Program-made: the position numbers and the translations under genes | NCBI GenBank assembly: GCA_021813125.1 | Contig: JAKALT010000004.1 | Span: 7,941-71,940 of the forward strand | DNA from: a bacterium | Lineage (GTDB): Bacteria; Patescibacteriota; Microgenomatia; Curtissbacterales; GWA2-41-24 | Direction of reading: 5' to 3' | DNA: 64,000 nucleotides | In this document: positions 2,526 through 59,603 of the stretch, one piece after another | How the letters are laid out: each line of letters starts with the position of its first letter | Position numbering within the stretch: position 1 is the first letter of the stretch | The notes under the pieces: generated by a model | Told to the model about the DNA's origin: nothing | The model's database searches: none | Seen by the model: only the letters and a program-made list of their open reading frames with translations

Positions 2526-3365
2526 TCATTTCTTCCAATTTTCCGGCAGATATTTATTAAACGATCCTGCGCCAGAAATCAAATATTGTTGAATGATGCC
2601 GATTATAGTAAAAGTGTTCCAATAAAGCGAGAGGCCAACCGGGAATCCGTACGAAAAGAAAGCTATCATTGCCGGCATTATTAATGACATTTGTGATTGC
2701 ATGGAGGCCATTGCATCTTCCATACTTTCTTTTTCCTTTTCTTTGGTTTTAGGTTTTATGGCTTGAGTTTGGGCCGTTGGCATAAGCATTTTTGACTGAA
2801 CATATTGGAAAAGACCAGTTAAAATCGGGATTATCAAAATGAAAAAGCCAATATGGGCCCAGTCACTTGGTTTATTTTCAAGCCGCAATCCAAAAAAGAA
2901 CGTGTTGGGAATTTTATCAAGGTGCATGGCGGAAAAGTATATTTTAGAGTTGATCTTAGTTAGAAAATCTGTTTTTGTTGGATCAACTATTTCCAAAAGA
3001 ACTCTGTAAAGGGCAATAAACACAGGTATTTGAACTAACAACGGTAAACAGCCAGCCAGCGGGTTGACTCCGTGTTCCTTGTAAAGTTTGGTTACCTCCT
3101 CCTGGTGGCGAACTTTATCTTGACCGTGTTCGGCTTTAATTCGGTCAAGATGGGGCTTTAAGGCTGCCATCTTTTGAGTGCTCTTGAGCTGAGCCGCAGT
3201 AAGAGGCCAAAGGATAAGCCTTACAATGATTGTCAAAATAATTATTGCCAGTCCAAGAGCGCCAGGAATATGAATAAATAGAAAAACCTTATAAAAAACA
3301 ATAAGTAAGTTTAAGATTGGGGTTATAAGAAGTGCGTCAAACGGGTTCATATTAAGCTGGGTCAA
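2526..3365 (-). CDS. yidC: Membrane protein insertase YidC/Oxa1 family
   Basis: 279-aa polytopic protein. It sits in the conserved position between yidD/rnpA and jag, and its hydrophobic core resembles YidC. Confidence 0.7.
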
Positions 3366-3549
3366 AATAGGATCTTTTCGATAATGGATGGCAAGATAAA
3401 ACTCTCAAGGCTCCTTTTGCGGCACCTTTTATTAGCCCGTATTTGTTGATGGCGTCTAGCATATACTCGGAGCAGGTGGGGTCGTATCTGCATGCCCTGA
3501 CGTTAGACGGGAAAAGGATGTGATAAATGTTATACAAAATTCTGATCAT
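3352..3549 (-). CDS. yidD: Membrane protein insertion efficiency factor YidD
   Basis: 65 aa carrying the [10 protein letters not shown] motif that is the YidD hallmark. It overlaps the yidC start. Confidence 0.7.
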
Positions 3550-3551
3550 AT

Positions 3552-3836
3552 TTAGATAAGACTTTTTATTTGCGGCATAAGTTTTTTGGCAACGTCTGCT
3601 AATTTTAGTCCCGATAAGTCCTTTTTGACAATTATCCTTAGATCTCCTTTTAATTTCATATCTTGTAAAATTTCCCTGATCAATCTTTTTATCCTATTTC
3701 TTGAAACCGCCTTTGGGGCTGTTCTTTTGGTAATTATTATTGTCTGTTTTACTTTTTCCCCCTTCTTGAAGCTTATTACAAAATCGCCTGACTGGTTTTT
3801 TGATGGTAAACTTTCGCCTTTTGGGGAAAATGACAT
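3552..3836 (-). CDS. rnpA: RNase P protein component
   Basis: 94-aa basic protein immediately downstream of rpmH. It carries an IKRLIRE-type motif typical of RnpA. Confidence 0.7.
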
Positions 3837-3973
3837 TAAACGGCTAGCTTTGCCCTGCTTTTTGCCCTTCTTCTTTTGAGGACTTTTCTGCCGCCTGCGG
3901 TTTGCATTCGCTTTCTAAATCCGTGGGTTCTGGCCCTCTTTTTTTTCTTCGGTTGATAAGTGCGTTTTGGCAT
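3836..3973 (-). CDS. rpmH: 50S ribosomal protein L34
   Basis: [45 protein letters not shown] is the canonical L34 sequence. The listed ORF (to 4039) is over-extended, so the start is taken at the internal Met. Confidence 0.85.
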
Positions 3974-4029
3974 GGGAAAAGCATATATGAGAAGCTTAAA
4001 ATTTGCAAGAGGTGAGGCTAAATTTGTAG

Positions 4030-4038
4030 TTATCCACA
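4030..4038 (+). promoter_or_regulatory. Perfect DnaA box (TTATCCACA) in the rpmH-dnaA intergenic region. This is the likely oriC/dnaA promoter region.
   Basis: The 9-mer exactly matches the consensus DnaA box. A one-mismatch variant, TTATCAACA, occurs at 5651-5659 in the dnaA-dnaN spacer. Confidence 0.45.
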
Positions 4039-4189
4039 AAAATTTTAGCCGCTTGACAAGTGTTTATAAGTTTTGCAATGATAAATGCCGGAGCAAAAAA
4101 CAAGATCTTCTTTTCCTGCAAGATCAGATCTTCATAAGCCTGCAAGCGCGTTCGAGCGAAAGCTCCAAAAATTTATACATATTTATTGA

Positions 4190-5548
4190 ATGCAAAAAGA
4201 CGGACAAAAAGTCTGGAGTGATGTTTGCTCTCGGCTAAAACTACAAGTTTCTACGTCGGCTTTTAGGACCTGGTTTTCTGGGTCCTTTGTTTTGGACTCA
4301 AAGCAAGACGGCGGAAAAGTTCTTTTGGTTATTGGCCTAAAAAACAATTTCTTGAAGGAGCAGGTTGAAAACCGCTATATGGATATTGTTGCCCGGGCCA
4401 TTTCGGAGTGCGGCTACAAAGACACCTCGGCAATTTTTGTAGTCGCCAACAGAGAAGTGAAAGCCGATTCAATCGGGGCACCAATTTTTACAGGTATTGT
4501 GCCCGAGATGATTGTAAAAAATATCAGGTCTGATTCCCTTAATCCAAACCATACATTTAGTAATTTTGTCGTGGGGTATTCAAATAATCTCGCGTATTTG
4601 GCCGCTTCCAAGGTGGCCGGCAATTTAGGCGGAGCCTACAACCCCCTCATGATTTACGGCTCTGTCGGTGTCGGGAAAACCCATCTTTTGCAGGCTGTCG
4701 GGAACCAAGTGCTTTCAAGAGTGCTAGATTCTAAAGTACTTTACGTAACATCCGAAAAGTTTACAAATGATTTTTTAGAGTCGCTACGCAATAAAACACA
4801 GGCTTCTTTTAGACAAAAATACCGCAGCGTTGACCTCCTTTTGGTAGACGATATCCAATTCTTGGCCGGTAAAGAAAGCACTCAGGATGAATTTTTCCAC
4901 ACGTTTAACGAAATCTGCCTTTCGGGGAAGCAAGTCGTTTTGGCAAGCGATAGGCATCCAAAAGAGTTGGGTCGCCTTAAAGAAAGGTTAGTTAGTCGAT
5001 TTTTGGGTGGAATGACAGCTGATATCGGGTTACCTGATTTGGAAATGAGAATGGCAATTATTCGTGCAAAGTGCGCCGAGCGGGGGATAAAGCTTGACCA
5101 CGAGCTGGTCAGTTGGGTTGCCAAGGAAAGCACGGGTGGGGTAAGGGAACTTGAAGGTATGCTTACTTCAATGCTTGCCTACATGAAAATCAATGCCGGA
5201 AAAGCCACAGTTGAAGAGATTAAGTCGGCTGTTTCCAGTAATAGACCTTCTATTAAAAATCCGCCAACGCCAGGTAGGGTTATTGAGGCTGTTTGCCGAC
5301 ACTTTAAGGTTGACTCTATCTCTTTGCGCGGCTCAAGTCGAAAAGCAGCAATTGTTCTGGCAAGGCAAGTTCTAATGTACTTTTTGAGGACAGAGCTGGG
5401 TTTGCCCCTTGAGCAAATCGGTGACCTTGTTGGGGGCCGCGACCATTCTACTGTAATTCATGGAGTTGAAAAGATTTCCAGGTTGATTTCGGCAAGCCAA
5501 AAGAAGAAGGATGATATTTTGAGAATTCAGTCTTTAATCCACGCGTAA
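4190..5548 (+). CDS. dnaA: Chromosomal replication initiator DnaA
   Basis: Carries the AAA+ Walker A GSVGVGKTHLL and the Walker B region LLLVDDIQFL. The C-terminal DnaA box-binding domain reads VLARQVLMYFLRTELGLPLEQIGDLVGGRDHSTVIHG. Confidence 0.9.
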   Translation: MQKDGQKVWSDVCSRLKLQVSTSAFRTWFSGSFVLDSKQDGGKVLLVIGLKNNFLKEQVENRYMDIVARAISECGYKDTSAIFVVANREVKADSIGAPIFTGIVPEMIVKNIRSDSLNPNHTFSNFVVGYSNNLAYLAASKVAGNLGGAYNPLMIYGSVGVGKTHLLQAVGNQVLSRVLDSKVLYVTSEKFTNDFLESLRNKTQASFRQKYRSVDLLLVDDIQFLAGKESTQDEFFHTFNEICLSGKQVVLASDRHPKELGRLKERLVSRFLGGMTADIGLPDLEMRMAIIRAKCAERGIKLDHELVSWVAKESTGGVRELEGMLTSMLAYMKINAGKATVEEIKSAVSSNRPSIKNPPTPGRVIEAVCRHFKVDSISLRGSSRKAAIVLARQVLMYFLRTELGLPLEQIGDLVGGRDHSTVIHGVEKISRLISASQKKKDDILRIQSLIHA

Positions 5549-23871: not shown

Positions 23872-24059
23872 GACAAAGGAATCTTAACGACTGAAAATTA
23901 GTTAATAAATTAATATTTGGTGCGGGGAAGTGTAGTTTGAATCTACCACTGTGCCGCAAGGGTAAACAAGTCCCAGTACCGCATCAAATTTTACTAAATC
24001 CCGAGCAGGATAATCGTCTAAATAAACGACTTTAACCTTCTTGGGATCAAGGAGGTTTT

Positions 24060-44222: not shown

Positions 44223-44229
44223 ATTTTGT

Positions 44230-44642
44230 GGAGATGCCGGGTATTGGGCCCGGGTCCAGAATTACAATTTGTAAACATCTACAAGCTTAGTTTATCTATT
44301 AAATCTTGCCGCAATTTAAAACCGATAAACAGGATAAATTTTGGCAAAGACCAAATTTTTGCCCACCCGTTTGGTCAAAACGACTGGACTATCCCGGCTG
44401 AGTTATTGCCCAAAAAGTTCCACCGGGAAAAAACTTTAAGGACAAGCCTTATTGCTACTTAAAAATTGTTAAGCAGCTAAAAAGGCTGGAGCTGCGCTAG
44501 GAGCAAATGCGCTCCTAATAAACGCAATTCCTTGTGCAATTTTAGATTTTGCACGTAATTTTGAACCAAAGCCTGACGCGCTTTAGATTCGTATTCGGCT
44601 TGCAGTTTGTCAAAGTGCGATCCTGTCGAAACAATACATCCC
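44230..44642 (-). ncRNA. ssrA: Putative tmRNA (ssrA)
   Basis: The minus-strand 5' end GGGGATGTATTGTTTCGACAGG resembles the tmRNA 5' end GGGGCTGATTCTGGATTCGACGGG. An internal reading frame ends ...GCT CCA GCC TTT TTA GCT GCT TAA, giving a tag ...APAFLAA*. The 3' end CATCTCCA pairs with the 5' GGGGATG. The gene is adjacent to smpB. Confidence 0.5.
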
Positions 44643-44699
44643 CAGGAAGCGAAATTATAGCAAAGAATAGATCTATTTTCAAAATTGATATCATGAATT

Positions 44700-46531: not shown

Positions 46532-46591
46532 CAGCTCTGCTTTAATTATACAGTTGAAGGCTTGATGTCGATCGAGGGACTTTGTTGAGTG

Positions 46592-46676
46592 CGGAGAGGG
46601 TGGGATTCGAACCCACGGTAGCTTGCGCTACAGTCGTTTTCAAGACGACCGCACTAGTCCACTATGCGACCTCTCC
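46592..46676 (-). tRNA. tRNA-Ser(TGA)
   Basis: Minus-strand reading GGAGAGGTCGCATAGTGGACTAGTGCGGTCGTCTTGAAAACGAC-(long variable arm)-GTGGGTTCGAATCCCACCCTCTCCG. The anticodon loop is CTTGAAA with discriminator G. Confidence 0.8.
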
Positions 46677-46682
46677 AAATAG

Positions 46683-46772
46683 CGGAGGAGGTGGGATTCG
46701 AACCCACGTGAGCCGTTTATAGGCTCGCGAGTTTAGCAAACTCGTGCAATGGACCAGCTATGCGACTCCTCC
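46683..46772 (-). tRNA. tRNA-Ser(GCT)
   Basis: Minus-strand reading GGAGGAGTCGCATAGCTGGTCCATTGCACGAGTTTGCTAAACTCG-(long variable arm)-GTGGGTTCGAATCCCACCTCCTCCG. The anticodon loop is TTGCTAA. Confidence 0.8.
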
Positions 46773-47381
46773 TTGAGAACAAAAACCTTCAAAAATGCCT
46801 AGTAATCTAAGTTGTATTTTATTGTCTATATACCTTAGGCTGCACGTACCAGGATAATTTTGACGTTTCATTTTACCACGCGGTTGTGTTACTGTGGGCT
46901 TTAAAAATTTTCCGGTTGGTATTTCCAACAAACGGCTCCAGTATTTTATAAGTTTTGAATAGGTATGGGTATTGTGTATTTGAAGTTGAACGCGAAGTTT
47001 ATTCTCATCAAGTTTGAACCCTTTCCTTAAAAGAAAGAGGAAAGTTTTAACCAGGCTAGGGTCGCTATTTACAAAAGCTATTATGTTTGTTGCAGGGTAT
47101 TTTGCGCCTTCACAACCATATAAAAGTGCAGCGAGAAATTTGGCCATATCGCTAGATATTGCTTTTTGTTCCGGGACTAAATTTAAGTCAAGGCGTTTAG
47201 TTTTCTCTCTGCGTAATTTGTTATTAGTGATAAGAGATTGTTTTCTGTCAATTCTCAGATCAATGCACCAATTTCTAACACTACTGGAAGGTACATTTAA
47301 CAATTTGCTTATCTCGTAAAGAGAAAGTTGTTTTTCCCTTAGTTCTCGTGCTTCAGAGACAACTGAACTCGGGTATTTCAT
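46758..47381 (-). CDS. HTH-domain protein with a single degenerate LAGLIDADG-like motif (homing-endonuclease-related?)
   Basis: 207 aa. The N-terminal HTH reads LSLYEISKLLNVPSSSVRNW. The motif KFLAALLYGCEGAK resembles one LAGLIDADG block. It lies next to the tRNA-Ser pair, and its last 15 nt overlap tRNA-Ser(GCT). Confidence 0.35.
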   Translation of the reverse strand: MKYPSSVVSEARELREKQLSLYEISKLLNVPSSSVRNWCIDLRIDRKQSLITNNKLRREKTKRLDLNLVPEQKAISSDMAKFLAALLYGCEGAKYPATNIIAFVNSDPSLVKTFLFLLRKGFKLDENKLRVQLQIHNTHTYSKLIKYWSRLLEIPTGKFLKPTVTQPRGKMKRQNYPGTCSLRYIDNKIQLRLLGIFEGFCSQGGVA

Positions 47382-48339: not shown

Positions 48340-48429
48340 GGAGGCGTCGCATAGTGGACTAGTGCGGTCGTTTCGAAAACGACTATCGGGGCAACTCGAT
48401 CAGAGGTTCGAATCCTCTCGCCTCCGCCA
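48340..48429 (+). tRNA. tRNA-Ser(CGA) with an encoded CCA
   Basis: GGAGGCGTCGCATAGTGGACTAGTGCGGTCGTTTCGAAAACGAC-(long variable arm)-AGAGGTTCGAATCCTCTCGCCTCCGCCA. Confidence 0.8.
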
Positions 48430-49239: not shown

Positions 49240-49665
49240 ATGGTTAAACGCGTATTTTCGGCCGGCGGGATAGTAATAAAAATAGAAGATAGTGTTATAA
49301 AAGTTCTAGTGACCCAACACTCCGGACACCACGGATGGGATTTTCCAAAAGGCCATTTGGAAGCTGGTGAAAGTAGCGAGCAAGCAGCTCTGAGGGAGGT
49401 TGAGGAGGAAACCGGTGTCCGCGGGAAGATTTTGGAGAAAGTTGGGCAAACACAGTATTTTTACTTTGAAGAGAGCCAGAAAGTTTTTAAGACAGTAACG
49501 TTTTTTTTGATGGAATATATTTCCGAAGGCAAAGCTTCAACAGCGTTTGAGGTAAGTGATAAAGTTTGGCTTCCGGTTGGCGAGGTTGAGAAAAAATTGA
49601 CATTTAAGGACACAAAAAGACTTTGGGAAGAGGCAAAAGAAAAGATCGGGGAGTTAAACTATTGA
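49240..49665 (+). CDS. NUDIX hydrolase
   Basis: The Nudix box GHLEAGESSEQAALREVEEETGV fits GX5EX7REUXEEXGU. Confidence 0.75.
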   Translation: MVKRVFSAGGIVIKIEDSVIKVLVTQHSGHHGWDFPKGHLEAGESSEQAALREVEEETGVRGKILEKVGQTQYFYFEESQKVFKTVTFFLMEYISEGKASTAFEVSDKVWLPVGEVEKKLTFKDTKRLWEEAKEKIGELNY

Positions 49666-49689
49666 TTTCGGGTTTAATTCGGAATAAAA

Positions 49690-50448
49690 TTGATTGTGAA
49701 ATCAAACCTATTAAAGTATCCTCTTAAAAGTCATAGAAAAGAAATTTTAATTCCTCAGGAATCTGTATATCTTGCAGAGTTCATGGGAATTGTTTTTGGA
49801 GATGGGGGAATTAACAATGATTGGCAACTGGTTATATCTTTGAATAGTGAACGAGACCTTGAGTACAGCAAGTACGTAGTTAAACTTATTAAAACCCTTT
49901 TTAGTCTCGAAATTTCTATAAGAAAAAGACCAAGACAGAATACACTTGTAATCGTTTGTTCGAGTATGAATTTACTCGATTTTTTAATTGAAAAAGGGGC
50001 GGTTAAGGGTAATAAAATCCGACAAAAATTCGATATTCCTAAGTGGATAAGTGGGAACAGTAGTTATGAAAAGGCGTTTGTAAGAGGAGTGGTTGATACT
50101 GATGGATGTTTATATACCCACAAACATAAGGTTGCAGGTAAGGTCTATACAAATATAGGATTTTGTTTTGCAAGTTCTTCGCCACCTCTTTTAAAAAGTG
50201 TTGGGAATATACTTCGTTTGGTGGGAATCGAACCACACATTAAGTATGAGAAAAATAGTATCTATTTGTATAGCAGTAAAGCCGTGTTAAAATATCTTCA
50301 AATTTTTGGATCTTCCAATCCTAGAGTCTTAAATAAGTATATAAACTGGAGAGGTGCTGGAGTGGACGATCAGGCAGACCTGGAAAGTCTGTATAGCCGC
50401 AAGGTTATCGTGGGTTCGAATCCCACCCTCTCCGCTTTAAATAATTAA
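49690..50448 (+). CDS. Double-motif LAGLIDADG homing endonuclease family protein; the ORF runs through a tRNA-Ser gene
   Basis: Motif 1 is LAEFMGIVFGDGG and motif 2 is FVRGVVDTDGCL. The last roughly 33 codons are encoded by the tRNA-Ser(GGA) sequence (...VIVGSNPTLSA). Confidence 0.6.
   Translation: MIVKSNLLKYPLKSHRKEILIPQESVYLAEFMGIVFGDGGINNDWQLVISLNSERDLEYSKYVVKLIKTLFSLEISIRKRPRQNTLVIVCSSMNLLDFLIEKGAVKGNKIRQKFDIPKWISGNSSYEKAFVRGVVDTDGCLYTHKHKVAGKVYTNIGFCFASSSPPLLKSVGNILRLVGIEPHIKYEKNSIYLYSSKAVLKYLQIFGSSNPRVLNKYINWRGAGVDDQADLESLYSRKVIVGSNPTLSALNN
50348..50434 (+). tRNA. tRNA-Ser(GGA)
   Basis: GGAGAGGTGCTGGAGTGGACGATCAGGCAGACCTGGAAAGTCTG-(long variable arm)-GTGGGTTCGAATCCCACCCTCTCCG. The anticodon stem is CAGAC/GTCTG and the loop is CTGGAAA. 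Confidence 0.7.
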
Positions 50449-50775
50449 ATGAAAGATTCTCTATTTAATAAATTACCCTTAGCCTTTGTGATTGCTGGTT
50501 TGTGGTCAGCTATAGGTTTTGTCGGGATGGTTATGGGTACAGGTTGTTTTGGTCCAGGTGGCTTAAGCGGTCACCTTTTTCAAACAGATTGTTCATTGAT
50601 ATACAGAGCATTAGTTGTTGTAATGGCTTTACCTTATTTCCTTATGGGTCTAGTCTTGAGATCTATTGAGAGTTGGGATGCTATAGTATTTATGTTTTCT
50701 GGTTTTGTTTTTTCGCTTATATTATCTTTTTTGTTGGTTAATTTAATCTCATTTTTTTGGGCAAAGAAGAAATAG
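50449..50775 (+). CDS. Small polytopic membrane protein
   Basis: 108 aa with three hydrophobic helices. Confidence 0.35.
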   Translation: MKDSLFNKLPLAFVIAGLWSAIGFVGMVMGTGCFGPGGLSGHLFQTDCSLIYRALVVVMALPYFLMGLVLRSIESWDAIVFMFSGFVFSLILSFLLVNLISFFWAKKK

Positions 50776-58701: not shown

Positions 58702-59038
58702 ATTTTTTATTTTAGCAGATTATTGTAAAAGTTCACGTTTATGTCTAAAATTTGCAACATGAGGGCTGAGAGACCTTTAAGTGTATTGTCTGCTGTTGCC
58801 GCGATTGGAATTGCTATTTTACCGGCAGATAATGCGACTGCTCGCAAAACTCCAGGCGGGGAGACGATGATTTTACGTCAGGGTGTCATGCCGCCAGAAG
58901 ATAGGCTAAAGCCAAAACTTCCGGGAAAACTAAAACTTGAGCCAAAAACCACTTAATTGAAGCAGTGATTGCTTCATGTTAAAATCACATCTGCACTTTG
59001 ACAATCCGCGATAGCTCAATGGTAGAGCGTCCCGCTGT

Positions 59039-59554
59039 GAAGATTTATTTGGTATACTCAAGTGTGTATGCCAGATAAGAGAACTTATGCTGACCGCGCC
59101 GAATATTTAAAGCGAGCAGTTACAAAGCGAAGAAGAAAGCTTAAACAACTGGTTGTCGAATACAAAGGCGGTAAGTGCATTCTTTGTGGGTATAACAAAT
59201 CAATGTGGGTTCTCGAATTACACCATGTTGATAGCAGTACTAAAGAATTTAATATGTCTGTTAGGGGTTTAACTCGTTCTTGGGAAAAAATCAAAGCAGA
59301 AGCAGACAAATGTATTCTTGTATGTGCAAATTGTCACAGGGAAGTGCATGCAGGCATTACGCAGCTCCCGAAAGAAATTTTCGGGATGAAAAATCGGGCT
59401 AATTCGGGGAAACCCTGAAACGGGTAATCCCGAGCTAAATGCACGTTCATGTAAACTGAACGTACTAAATGTGTAGAGACTATATACCCGGGGCCTAAGT
59501 CAAAAGATATGGTCATGAGATAGTCCACTCCTTTTGGTAACAAGAGGGTTTGTG
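59039..59554 (+). mobile_element. Putative group I intron within the tRNA anticodon loop, carrying an HNH homing endonuclease ORF
   Basis: A 516-nt insertion separates two perfectly complementary tRNA halves. The 5' exon ends in U and the intron's final nucleotide is G, which are group I splice-site conventions. It contains a 118-aa HNH ORF. Confidence 0.45.
59062..59418 (+). CDS. HNH endonuclease (intron-encoded)
   Basis: CILCGYNKSMWVLELHHVDSSTKEFNMSVRGLTRSWEKIKAEADKCILVCANCHREVHAG contains the CxxC...HH...CxxCH HNH motif. Confidence 0.7.
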   Translation: MCMPDKRTYADRAEYLKRAVTKRRRKLKQLVVEYKGGKCILCGYNKSMWVLELHHVDSSTKEFNMSVRGLTRSWEKIKAEADKCILVCANCHREVHAGITQLPKEIFGMKNRANSGKP

Positions 59555-59603
59555 TAACGGGAGGGTTGTAGGTTCGAGTCCTACTCGCGGAGCAAATTTT
59601 TGT

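Follow-up and report, generated by a model that had tools for sequence, protein, structure and literature searches.

How does a protein-coding sequence come to run directly through an intact tRNA gene? The question is raised by a 64,000-nucleotide (nt) stretch of a Curtissbacterales genome (contig JAKALT010000004.1; the whole stretch is hereafter called the window), in which the open reading frame (ORF) of a LAGLIDADG homing endonuclease at 49690–50448 (+) continues without a stop codon across a tRNA-Ser(GGA) gene. Comparison of this locus with its relatives makes it probable that the gene belongs to an intron-less, free-standing homing cassette that is specialised on the tRNA-Ser(GGA) gene of the Patescibacteria (candidate phyla radiation, CPR).

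The endonuclease gene and its tRNA

The ORF comprises 252 codons plus a TAA stop when it is started mechanically at a TTG, as in the ORF listing. The public gene call for the identical protein (P0001) starts two codons later at GTG 49696, and this is probably the real start. The folded part of the protein is encoded by codons 1–219 (49690–50346). It contains two LAGLIDADG motifs, of which the first (LAEFMGIVFGDGG; residues 28–40, 49771–49809 (+)) carries the acidic residue D38 and the second (FVRGVVDTDGC; residues 130–140, 50077–50109 (+)) carries D138. In an alignment of 99 sequences D38 and G39 of motif 1 are invariant and G37 and G40 are at least 90% conserved, while in motif 2 G133, D136, T137, D138 and G139 are all invariant. 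Residues 126–218 match the Pfam family LAGLIDADG_3 (PF14528) with 34.4 bits (cut-off 22.5). An AlphaFold model based on the alignment of 99 homologues has a pLDDT (predicted local distance difference test) of 88, with block means of ~90 or more over roughly residues 21–220. The best Foldseek match of the model is I-Tsp061I (E = 1e-11, template modelling (TM) score 0.76 on the target), with further matches to the endonuclease domain of the TliVMA intein, I-DmoI and I-AniI; a search of the PDB by sequence with the family profile returned I-Tsp061I alone, at E = 0.75. The motifs, the Pfam match and the fold all bear out the original prediction that this is a double-motif LAGLIDADG endonuclease gene. 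On the model, the protein is probably a compact, monomeric, two-domain endonuclease, and probably an active one.

The tRNA into which the ORF continues is intact. ARAGORN places tRNA-Ser(GGA) at 50348–50435 (+) and the Rfam tRNA family (RF00005) matches 50348–50434 with 53.3 bits; both describe an uninterrupted type II cloverleaf with a long variable arm and a GGA anticodon. Codon 220 of the ORF is TGG (50347–50349), the last two bases of which are bases 1 and 2 of the tRNA. The D loop (GGAGTGGACGATCAGG) contains no in-frame stop, so that the ORF is open across the whole tRNA, and the first in-frame stop is the TAA at 50446–50448, located 10 nt 3′ of the tRNA. The last 33 codons, as claimed from the first reading of the sequence and as ARAGORN and Rfam agree, are the tRNA itself. 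They encode the tail WRGAGVDDQADLESLYSRKVIVGSNPTLSALNN (codons 220–252, which together with the stop span 50347–50448 (+)).

The folded part of the protein ends where the tRNA begins, since both the Pfam domain and the confident section of the model stop at residue 218–220. Over the tRNA-encoded residues 221–252 the block means of pLDDT fall through 66, 56 and 41 to 37. The conservation of the tail beyond codon 219 is no greater than the tRNA sequence dictates, and a tail corresponding to the whole tRNA is lineage-specific, being common to the window and its closest relative (locus L001). The 33-residue tail is predicted to be unstructured, and is probably a functionless, neutral by-product of a D-loop variant. 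The TAA at its end abuts the ATG at 50449 (TAAATG, 50446–50451) of a gene encoding a 108-residue membrane protein (50449–50775); that the read-through of the tRNA ends exactly at the next start codon may reflect translational coupling, or may be coincidence.

An assembly error does not account for the missing stop. In NCBI, ENA and Logan records, contigs assembled separately from several samples agree with the window over every stretch of overlap (100% identity), and three of them (L078/L084, L079 and L085) cover the entire ORF and tRNA. A sequencing error, which had been raised at the outset as a source of the open frame, is thereby dismissed, and L001 is likewise open through the whole of its tRNA. 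Short-read contigs from several samples (L081, L086 and L087) break in the T arm or the 3′ strand of the acceptor stem, with ends at 50406–50435 of the window; this is most simply explained by a k-mer common to other tRNAs of the metagenome.

No intron is found by Rfam at 49.6–50.5 kb, though the same scan detects a group I intron elsewhere in the window (59322–59547), and the gene has no extein-like flanks. The gene is neither intron-encoded nor intein-encoded.

Junction, stub and empty sites in related genomes

A search of 5.8 billion proteins returned 353 homologues with about 55–65% identity, the named ones coming from Curtiss-, Woese-, Uhr-, Falkow- and Andersenbacteria, Saccharimonadales and 'Patescibacteria group' genomes. 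Most are 218–225 amino acids (aa) in length and share the C-terminus W-R-G-A-R/G-V-V, which is the translated 5′ end of the tRNA (tGG AGA GGT GCC CGA GTG GTT, followed by TAA or TGA). Seventy-seven related genome loci were fetched and ARAGORN was run on each. A downstream tRNA is visible in 68 of these, on the same strand as the ORF in every case, and it is tRNA-Ser(GGA) in 66 and tRNA-Ser(CGA) in the remaining two. The ORF ends within the tRNA in 56 of the 66 tRNA-Ser(GGA) loci, which are drawn from all CPR classes. In 49 loci it ends after 14–26 nt of the tRNA with a stop in the D loop, in five after 44–53 nt and in two after the whole tRNA; six further ORFs stop 4–76 nt before the tRNA and four are frameshifted. 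Full read-through of the tRNA also occurs in about 10 of 120 homologous proteins. In another relative, L002, the D loop (GAGTGGTTGAATAGG) provides a TAG. Nearly every member of the family has the junction in the same register (T|GG), and W220 is at least 90% conserved. A single open frame over an 88-nt tRNA is unremarkable; the excess over chance lies in the recurrence, in 56 of 66 loci, of one and the same tRNA joined in register.

The proposal that the gene has lost its stop can consequently be set aside, as members of the family are usually without a stop upstream of the tRNA and use a TAA or TGA in its D loop, at 14–26 nt. Comparison with related genomes upheld the junction as a recurrent feature and placed the whole-tRNA read-through among the rarer forms. 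The read-through in the window is probably a minor, neutral variant of a widespread architecture.

A second element is found on the other side of the ORF. In 17 loci a near-exact copy of GTCGCATAGTGGTCTAG (at most two mismatches in 17) lies about 40–85 nt upstream of the ORF, preceded by the 5′ strand of an acceptor stem (for example GGAGGCGTCGCATAGTGGTCTAGTGC), and about 10 further loci have decayed copies. This stub corresponds to tRNA-Ser from nt 1 to ~25, that is the 5′ strand of the acceptor stem and the whole D arm, the latter of a form typical of CPR (termed 'type B'). The strand then continues as an AT-rich spacer of ~14 nt, an inverted copy (GC)ACTAGACC and a TGnTATAAT sequence located 6–9 nt before the ATG. 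The inverted copy (GCACTAGACC) pairs with the D loop of the stub (GGTCTAGTGC). This hairpin folded in 10 of 10 loci tested, with z-scores from −1.6 to −5.6, and its extra stem pairs co-vary (GTGT/ACAC and TCTAT/ATAGA). It lies about 20–85 nt upstream of the ATG of the endonuclease, with the inverted copy abutting the extended −10 box, and is found in loci including L026, L027, L029, L034, L036, L039, L040, L048, L051, L061, L063 and L074. The hairpin may serve as an operator in autorepression, may insulate the gene against read-through that starts at the promoter of the old tRNA, or may simply be left over from the original insertion. The very short distance from the −10 box to the ATG suggests that the endonuclease mRNAs are leaderless.

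The tRNA linked to the endonuclease gene mostly has a D arm of another kind ('type A', for example GTGCGAGAGCGGTTTAATCGGC). In 58 of the 66 linked tRNAs the D arm is not of the stub type, type A differing at about nine positions from the D arm of the stub and of the empty sites described below, and none of the 66 matches the pattern with which those empty sites were sought. The tRNA-Ser(GGA) of the window (D arm GTGCTGGAGTGGACGATCAGGC) is type A. The other tRNA-Ser genes of this genome provide an internal comparison. tRNA-Ser(TGA) at 46591–46676 (−), with the D arm GTCGCATAGTGGACTAGTGCG, and tRNA-Ser(CGA) at 48340–48429 (+), both located by ARAGORN, are type B, as is tRNA-Ser(GCT); only the endonuclease-linked GGA gene is type A. 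L001 and L002 each have a linked tRNA-Ser(GGA) that is not type B, alongside at least two other tRNA-Ser genes that are. In L059 it is a tRNA-Ser(CGA), with a non-B D arm, that has the endonuclease gene beside it, whereas the tRNA-Ser(GGA) has none and is type B.

Uninterrupted type-B tRNA-Ser(GGA) genes were sought by scanning metagenome contigs with the pattern TCGCATAGYGGTCTAGTGCG-N5-YTGGAAA, which is present in at least 120 contigs. Of 80 such loci fetched, 78 contain an intact tRNA-Ser(GGA), and no copy of this endonuclease gene is present in any of the 60 having at least 750 nt of upstream sequence. Several empty loci are syntenic with filled ones, among them L106, which aligns (70–79% nt identity) with the flanks of the filled loci L061, L032, L047, L050, L071 and L024. 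Starting from its upstream gene, L106 continues as a TGCTATAAC box, a short leader hairpin, 'gaagca' and the tRNA. L061 has the same elements up to and including 'gaagca'; what comes next is the stub GGAGGCGTCGCATAGTGGTCTAGT, with the cassette behind it. The downstream flank of the linked tRNA in L032 matches the downstream flank of the L106 tRNA. Both types of allele, with and without the gene, are therefore found at one site in a conserved target, in related genomes rather than in the species of the window.

Aligned in this way, the sequences put the left junction of the cassette at about nt 24–26 of the tRNA. In the linked tRNAs the strands of the acceptor stem pair with each other and differ from the strand in the stub, so that the whole tRNA was probably replaced or co-converted. 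The original prediction had the endonuclease gene inserted just upstream of the tRNA; the related loci point instead to insertion into a resident tRNA-Ser(GGA) at ~nt 25, accompanied by a replacement tRNA. The other suggestion made there, that the tRNA acts as a 3′ processing signal for the endonuclease gene, is neither favoured nor contradicted by the sequences.

Some loci depart from the common pattern. The possibility that the sequence upstream of the ORF generally contains a direct repeat of the 5′ end of the linked tRNA itself was considered and rejected: such a repeat is present in only a few loci (L006 and L022), and most stubs are of the other D-arm type. Linked tRNAs of stub-like form (type B) are found in L050, L022, L042, L051 and L060, the ORFs of which end short of the tRNA. 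Between ORF and tRNA, at about 4612–4653, L050 also retains what is left of a type-A 5′ end (tGGAAGAGTGCAC). The sequences of such loci suggest secondary recombination between stub, cassette and tRNA. In the protein P0019 (272 aa, from an 850-kb contig) the N-terminal 50 residues begin ...SSVDRASACGAGGRRFESSRDH..., resembling the translated T arm of an upstream tRNA, and this endonuclease gene seems to be placed directly after another tRNA.

The divergence of the gene differs from that of its surroundings. Between the window and L001 the endonuclease gene has a nonsynonymous divergence (dN) of 0.04 and a synonymous divergence (dS) of 0.31, giving dN/dS = 0.13, whereas dS in the flanking genes is 0.96 (the NUDIX gene immediately upstream), 2.05 (DnaG), 3.6 and 2.65. 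The dS of the endonuclease gene is thus 3–10 times below that of its flanks. In the comparison of the window with L002 it is 1.27, against values from 2.2 to saturation in the neighbours. These differences indicate that the copies are younger than the genomes around them. The copies are under purifying selection, and the pattern is that expected of an element that is still moving or has recently been converted. Decay is also seen: four copies are frameshifted and two have internal deletions, one of which removes motif 2, and each of the six is found beside an intact tRNA. The tRNA is itself a mosaic. Compared with L002, the anticodon and variable arms of the window tRNA are identical at 35 of 35 positions, with 75% identity in the D arm and 73% in the endonuclease gene; compared with L001, the D arm is 85% and the endonuclease gene 87% identical, with 66% in the anticodon and variable arms. 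Both this mosaic and the intermediate dS of the adjacent NUDIX gene bear on a possible co-conversion of flanking markers, for which a comparison across all loci (below) gives no signal. A phage or viral origin was rejected, as no relatives were found in 50,697 phage records or in IMG/VR contigs.

A proposed homing mechanism and its alternatives

In the mechanism that we infer from these comparisons, the enzyme would recognise the resident, CPR-typical tRNA-Ser(GGA) gene with the D arm TCGCATAGYGGTCTAGTGCG and would cut it close to where the D arm ends (about nt 20–26). The palindromic CTAG at nt 20–23 of the tRNA is a candidate for a 4-nt overhang. Repair from an allele carrying the gene would then copy the cassette in, with the stub acting as the left homology arm and the 3′ part of the tRNA or the downstream flank as the right. 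The cassette would consist of the short inverted copy of the D loop, the promoter, the ORF of the endonuclease and, as a replacement, a tRNA-Ser(GGA) whose D arm differs; of the old tRNA only the ~25-nt 5′ stub would be left upstream. Since about nine positions of its D arm differ, the replacement tRNA would be spared from cutting. Because the 3′ end of the cassette is a tRNA, the ORF would end within it; placing the last codons and the stop in the first 14–26 nt of the replacement tRNA, with the Trp codon T|GG spanning tRNA bases 1–2, would save space.

The cassette in the window would be an old one, with no stub left and the NUDIX gene ending 24 nt upstream of the ORF. No stub, hairpin or promoter module is found upstream of the window ORF, the best match to the stub motif having 8 mismatches in 17. 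A promoter-like site (TTGATT-17-TAAAAT, 49662–49690 (+)) that matches the consensus weakly ends 5 nt before GTG 49696; the promoter scan of the window gave seven sites where 10.2 are expected by chance, and this match is not above chance.

Several observations weigh against the homing mechanism or limit it. For the window itself stub, hairpin and an empty-site relative are all absent, so that insertion at this site is argued from other genomes. The sample of empty sites was selected by the stub pattern itself, and the empty and filled pairs, at 70–79% identity, are too diverged to define the right boundary of the cassette. Eight of the 66 linked tRNAs have a stub-like D arm and about 12% of the homologues end in WRGRIVV or WRGRLVV, encoding such an arm; any immunity conferred by the D arm is consequently not absolute. 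Moreover, tRNA-Ser(CGA) of L002 and tRNA-Ser(GCT) of L001 are type A with no endonuclease gene. In a global partial-Mantel test on 62 loci the endonuclease gene was tracked equally by the 5′ part of the tRNA (r = 0.09) and by its anticodon and variable arms (r = 0.09), with p about 0.06 in each case. Finally, the identity of the protein drops with host divergence at about the rate of RpoD, as expected for mostly vertical descent with occasional transfer.

The overlap of ORF and tRNA might, in a manner compatible with homing, be a selected device for controlling expression, although we regard this as rather unlikely. From established RNase P and trans-translation biology it follows, whether or not the effect is selected, that processing of the tRNA at its 5′ end would remove the stop from the endonuclease message and convert it into a substrate for transfer-messenger RNA (tmRNA). 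Cleavage at tRNA +1 would thus give a non-stop mRNA that is passed to tmRNA and SmpB, the complete protein would come only from the unprocessed precursor, and a toxic nuclease would be kept scarce. In the other direction, maturation of the tRNA would be held up by ribosomes that translate into it. The in-register T|GG junction and the conserved W220 are consistent with such a device, as is the similar overlap, in another frame, of distant relatives and of a second gene in the window (ORF2, discussed below) with their tRNAs. The genome also encodes tmRNA, at 44226–44643 (−) and 5 kb from the locus (Rfam, 111.7 bits). However, the six loci in which the ORF stops before the tRNA argue that overlap is not obligatory, economy of space in a cassette with a tRNA at its 3′ end would explain it equally well, and the 33-aa tail in the window is predicted to be unstructured.

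It is considerably less probable that the gene is domesticated, that is a vertically inherited host factor such as a regulator, or a processing or maturation factor of tRNA-Ser(GGA) that is co-transcribed with its client. WhiA provides a precedent for a domesticated LAGLIDADG protein, and has lost the catalytic acidic residues. Domestication would be in keeping with the strong purifying selection (dN/dS 0.13), with identities across CPR classes of 45–60% that are comparable to those of RpoD and scale with host divergence, with the same dnaG–rpoD neighbourhood in several distant lineages, and with the absence of copies from the phage and viral collections searched. Yet both catalytic acidic residues are invariant here, unlike those of WhiA. 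The WhiA match in Pfam is below threshold (17.1 against 23.2 bits), and Pfam and the model reveal no WhiA-like C-terminal helix-turn-helix (HTH), the protein ending at the LAGLIDADG fold. The low dS marks copies younger than their genomes, six of 66 copies are broken with the tRNA intact, many CPR genomes have the tRNA without the gene, and the stubs testify to insertion into a pre-existing tRNA gene; all of this is against a host function.

That an ordinary endonuclease gene merely lies beside the tRNA, its stop erased by an error of assembly or gene calling, is refuted by the identical independent assemblies and by the same junction in 56 of 66 related loci, with domain and confident model ending exactly at the start of the tRNA, even though one open frame over 88 nt is not improbable and the TTG start was mechanically chosen.

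Other tRNA-linked genes and known homing systems

The window contains a second gene that runs into a tRNA, from a family that looks unrelated to the first. ORF2 (46758–47381 (−), 207 aa) encodes an N-terminal HTH and one LAGLIDADG-like domain (LLYGCEGAKY), and has no Pfam match. Its end overlaps tRNA-Ser(GCT) (46682–46772 (−); ARAGORN and Rfam) over 46758–46772, where the terminal codons GGA GGA GTC GCA TAG are nt 1–15 of the tRNA. For its stop ORF2 uses the TAG in the type-B D loop, in a frame other than that of the endonuclease family of 49690–50448. ORF2 has 25 homologues, many ending in GGVA or GEVA. Among its relatives, that in L208 overlaps tRNA-Ser(GCT) by 15 nt, that in L211 ends 4 nt before tRNA-Ser(GCT), that in L213 overlaps tRNA-Trp(CCA) by 15 nt and that in L214 is located directly after tRNA-Ser(GCT). 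A further relative, in L111, lies about 40 nt before the tRNA-Ser(GGA) of an otherwise empty-pattern locus. L001 has no ORF2 at the same pair of tRNAs. Upstream of ORF2 in the window there is an inverted repeat CTAGCT...AGCTAG (47459–47435) followed by TGATATACT (47410–47402), which recall the stub-hairpin-promoter module of the endonuclease family. Genes of other kinds are found in the same surroundings: a large serine recombinase (2657–4318 (−) in L211) adjoins the pair of ORF2-linked tRNA-Ser(GCT) and tRNA-Ser(TGA), and a GIY-YIG gene (595–813 in L209) is near the same tRNA-Ser cluster. The tRNA-Ser clusters of these genomes attract several kinds of mobile gene.

An exhaustive HMMER search with the endonuclease family returned 840 cluster representatives at E = 1e-10 or better. 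Most of these are about 330 aa long and have an additional region at the N-terminus. Of 149 newly returned representatives (P0146–P0294), at least 36 have C-termini like translated 5′ ends of tRNA, such as ...GEVA, ...EEYRSGHNG (which matches the tRNA-Ser(CGA) of L059), ...GRVPKR (possibly tRNA-Tyr) and ...ERCRSG. To judge from these termini, the design in which an ORF runs into a tRNA may characterise a much larger superfamily.

The claim that tRNA-Ser loci are recurrent targets of endonuclease genes in this genome is supported, and is widened by ORF2 and the other relatives. The HNH intron that had been counted in its favour is not at a tRNA-Ser gene, and that part of the claim falls. The intron splits tRNA-Asn(GTT), which occupies 59005–59594 (+), after anticodon position 35; exon 1 is 59005–59038, the intron 59039–59554 and exon 2 begins at 59555, and ARAGORN reads the joined exons as tRNA-Asn. 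The Rfam match to a group I intron is at 59322–59547 (+), and an HNH endonuclease ORF of 115 aa starts at 59068 (+). This intron matches a described class (PMC13011429). An unrelated element of the window is an AdoCbl-II (cobalamin) riboswitch aptamer at 23908–23989 (+), with 41.8 bits against a gathering score of 36.5.

A broader interpretation can be offered tentatively, at less than even odds. The LAGLIDADG superfamily might constitute a natural 'home-and-rescue' drive of the CPR, which would invade essential tRNA genes with long variable arms (the Ser isoacceptors, perhaps also Tyr) together with tRNA-Trp, would cut the resident gene and would install a recoded, cleavage-resistant tRNA. 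The ORF completed by a tRNA would tie the output of enzyme to RNase P and tmRNA, and the stub hairpin would be an operator or insulator.

Free-standing homing endonuclease genes are known from the T-even phages, SegF and the Mob genes being examples. The nearest case to the present one is SegB of T4, a free-standing gene in the tRNA gene cluster of the phage that homes without an intron (PMC2330249). As in the cassette proposed here, such a gene lies between genes, is linked to tRNA and involves neither intron nor intein. Phage genes of this type spread by cutting the endonuclease-free allele, with co-conversion of the flanks, and the allele that carries the gene is protected by sequence differences; the cassette may resemble them in this. 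The enzyme described here is however LAGLIDADG, rather than GIY-YIG or HNH, and is encoded in a cellular chromosome of the CPR and not in a phage. The cassette also interrupts its target tRNA gene, leaves a 5′ stub, brings a replacement tRNA and has an ORF that overlaps that tRNA, none of which is reported for SegB (PMC2330249).

LAGLIDADG endonucleases also occur in group I introns and insertion sequences of CPR rRNA genes (PMC11270868). These enzymes, together with archaeal rRNA-intron enzymes such as I-Tsp061I and I-DmoI, have the same fold, I-Tsp061I being the best structural match; the sequence relatives are of LAGLIDADG_3 type, and the target is again a conserved gene for a structural RNA; the CPR enzymes moreover share the host group. 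The cassette differs from them in that no intron or ribozyme surrounds the gene, and the target would be restored by a replacement segment instead of by splicing. The group I introns in tRNA genes of Patescibacteria are spliced ribozymes located at anticodon-loop position 35/36, and the endonucleases reported for them are HNH (PMC13011429). They too are mobile elements in tRNA genes of this phylum, but the cassette is without a ribozyme.

The supply of a substitute for a broken gene has parallels elsewhere. In fungal mitochondria, a mobile endonuclease ORF in Allomyces reportedly carries a replacement for the C-terminal end of atp6. ORFs of this kind resemble the cassette in that they insert into an essential gene, supply a substitute and leave the displaced part as a pseudogene fragment. 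There it is the 3′ end of a protein gene that is replaced in frame, whereas here it would be the 5′ part or the whole of a tRNA, with the ORF reading into it. Synthetic 'cleave-and-rescue' and 'home-and-rescue' drives link a nuclease that destroys an essential gene to a recoded, resistant copy at the same locus. The likeness to these is one of logic only, the cassette being natural, protein-guided and prokaryotic, with a tRNA whose resistance is presumed from its sequence.

The papers on CPR rRNA insertions (PMC11270868) and on tRNA introns (PMC13011429) do not mention the arrangement. In the literature searched, the coverage of which is incomplete, intron-less homing at tRNA genes is described for phage and organelle cases only, so that an earlier description is possible. 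The arrangement is widespread and apparently undescribed, and would allow a homing endonuclease gene to reside in an essential tRNA gene with no intron around it. The usual view is that such genes can enter an essential gene without harm only by way of an intron or intein, with the free-standing genes of phages as the exception. The family is a source of new LAGLIDADG scaffolds for which a candidate target is defined, and represents a natural parallel to the engineered cleave-and-rescue drives. For cellular genomes it would represent a third solution, in which an essential tRNA gene is broken and a substitute tRNA is brought in that doubles as the coding end of the endonuclease gene. This would explain why gene calls have odd tails such as 'WRGARVV' and '...GSNPxxSA', why the tRNA-Ser(GGA) of CPR genomes can differ in appearance from its sister tRNAs, and why an unannotated gene family is so widespread in genomes as small as these.

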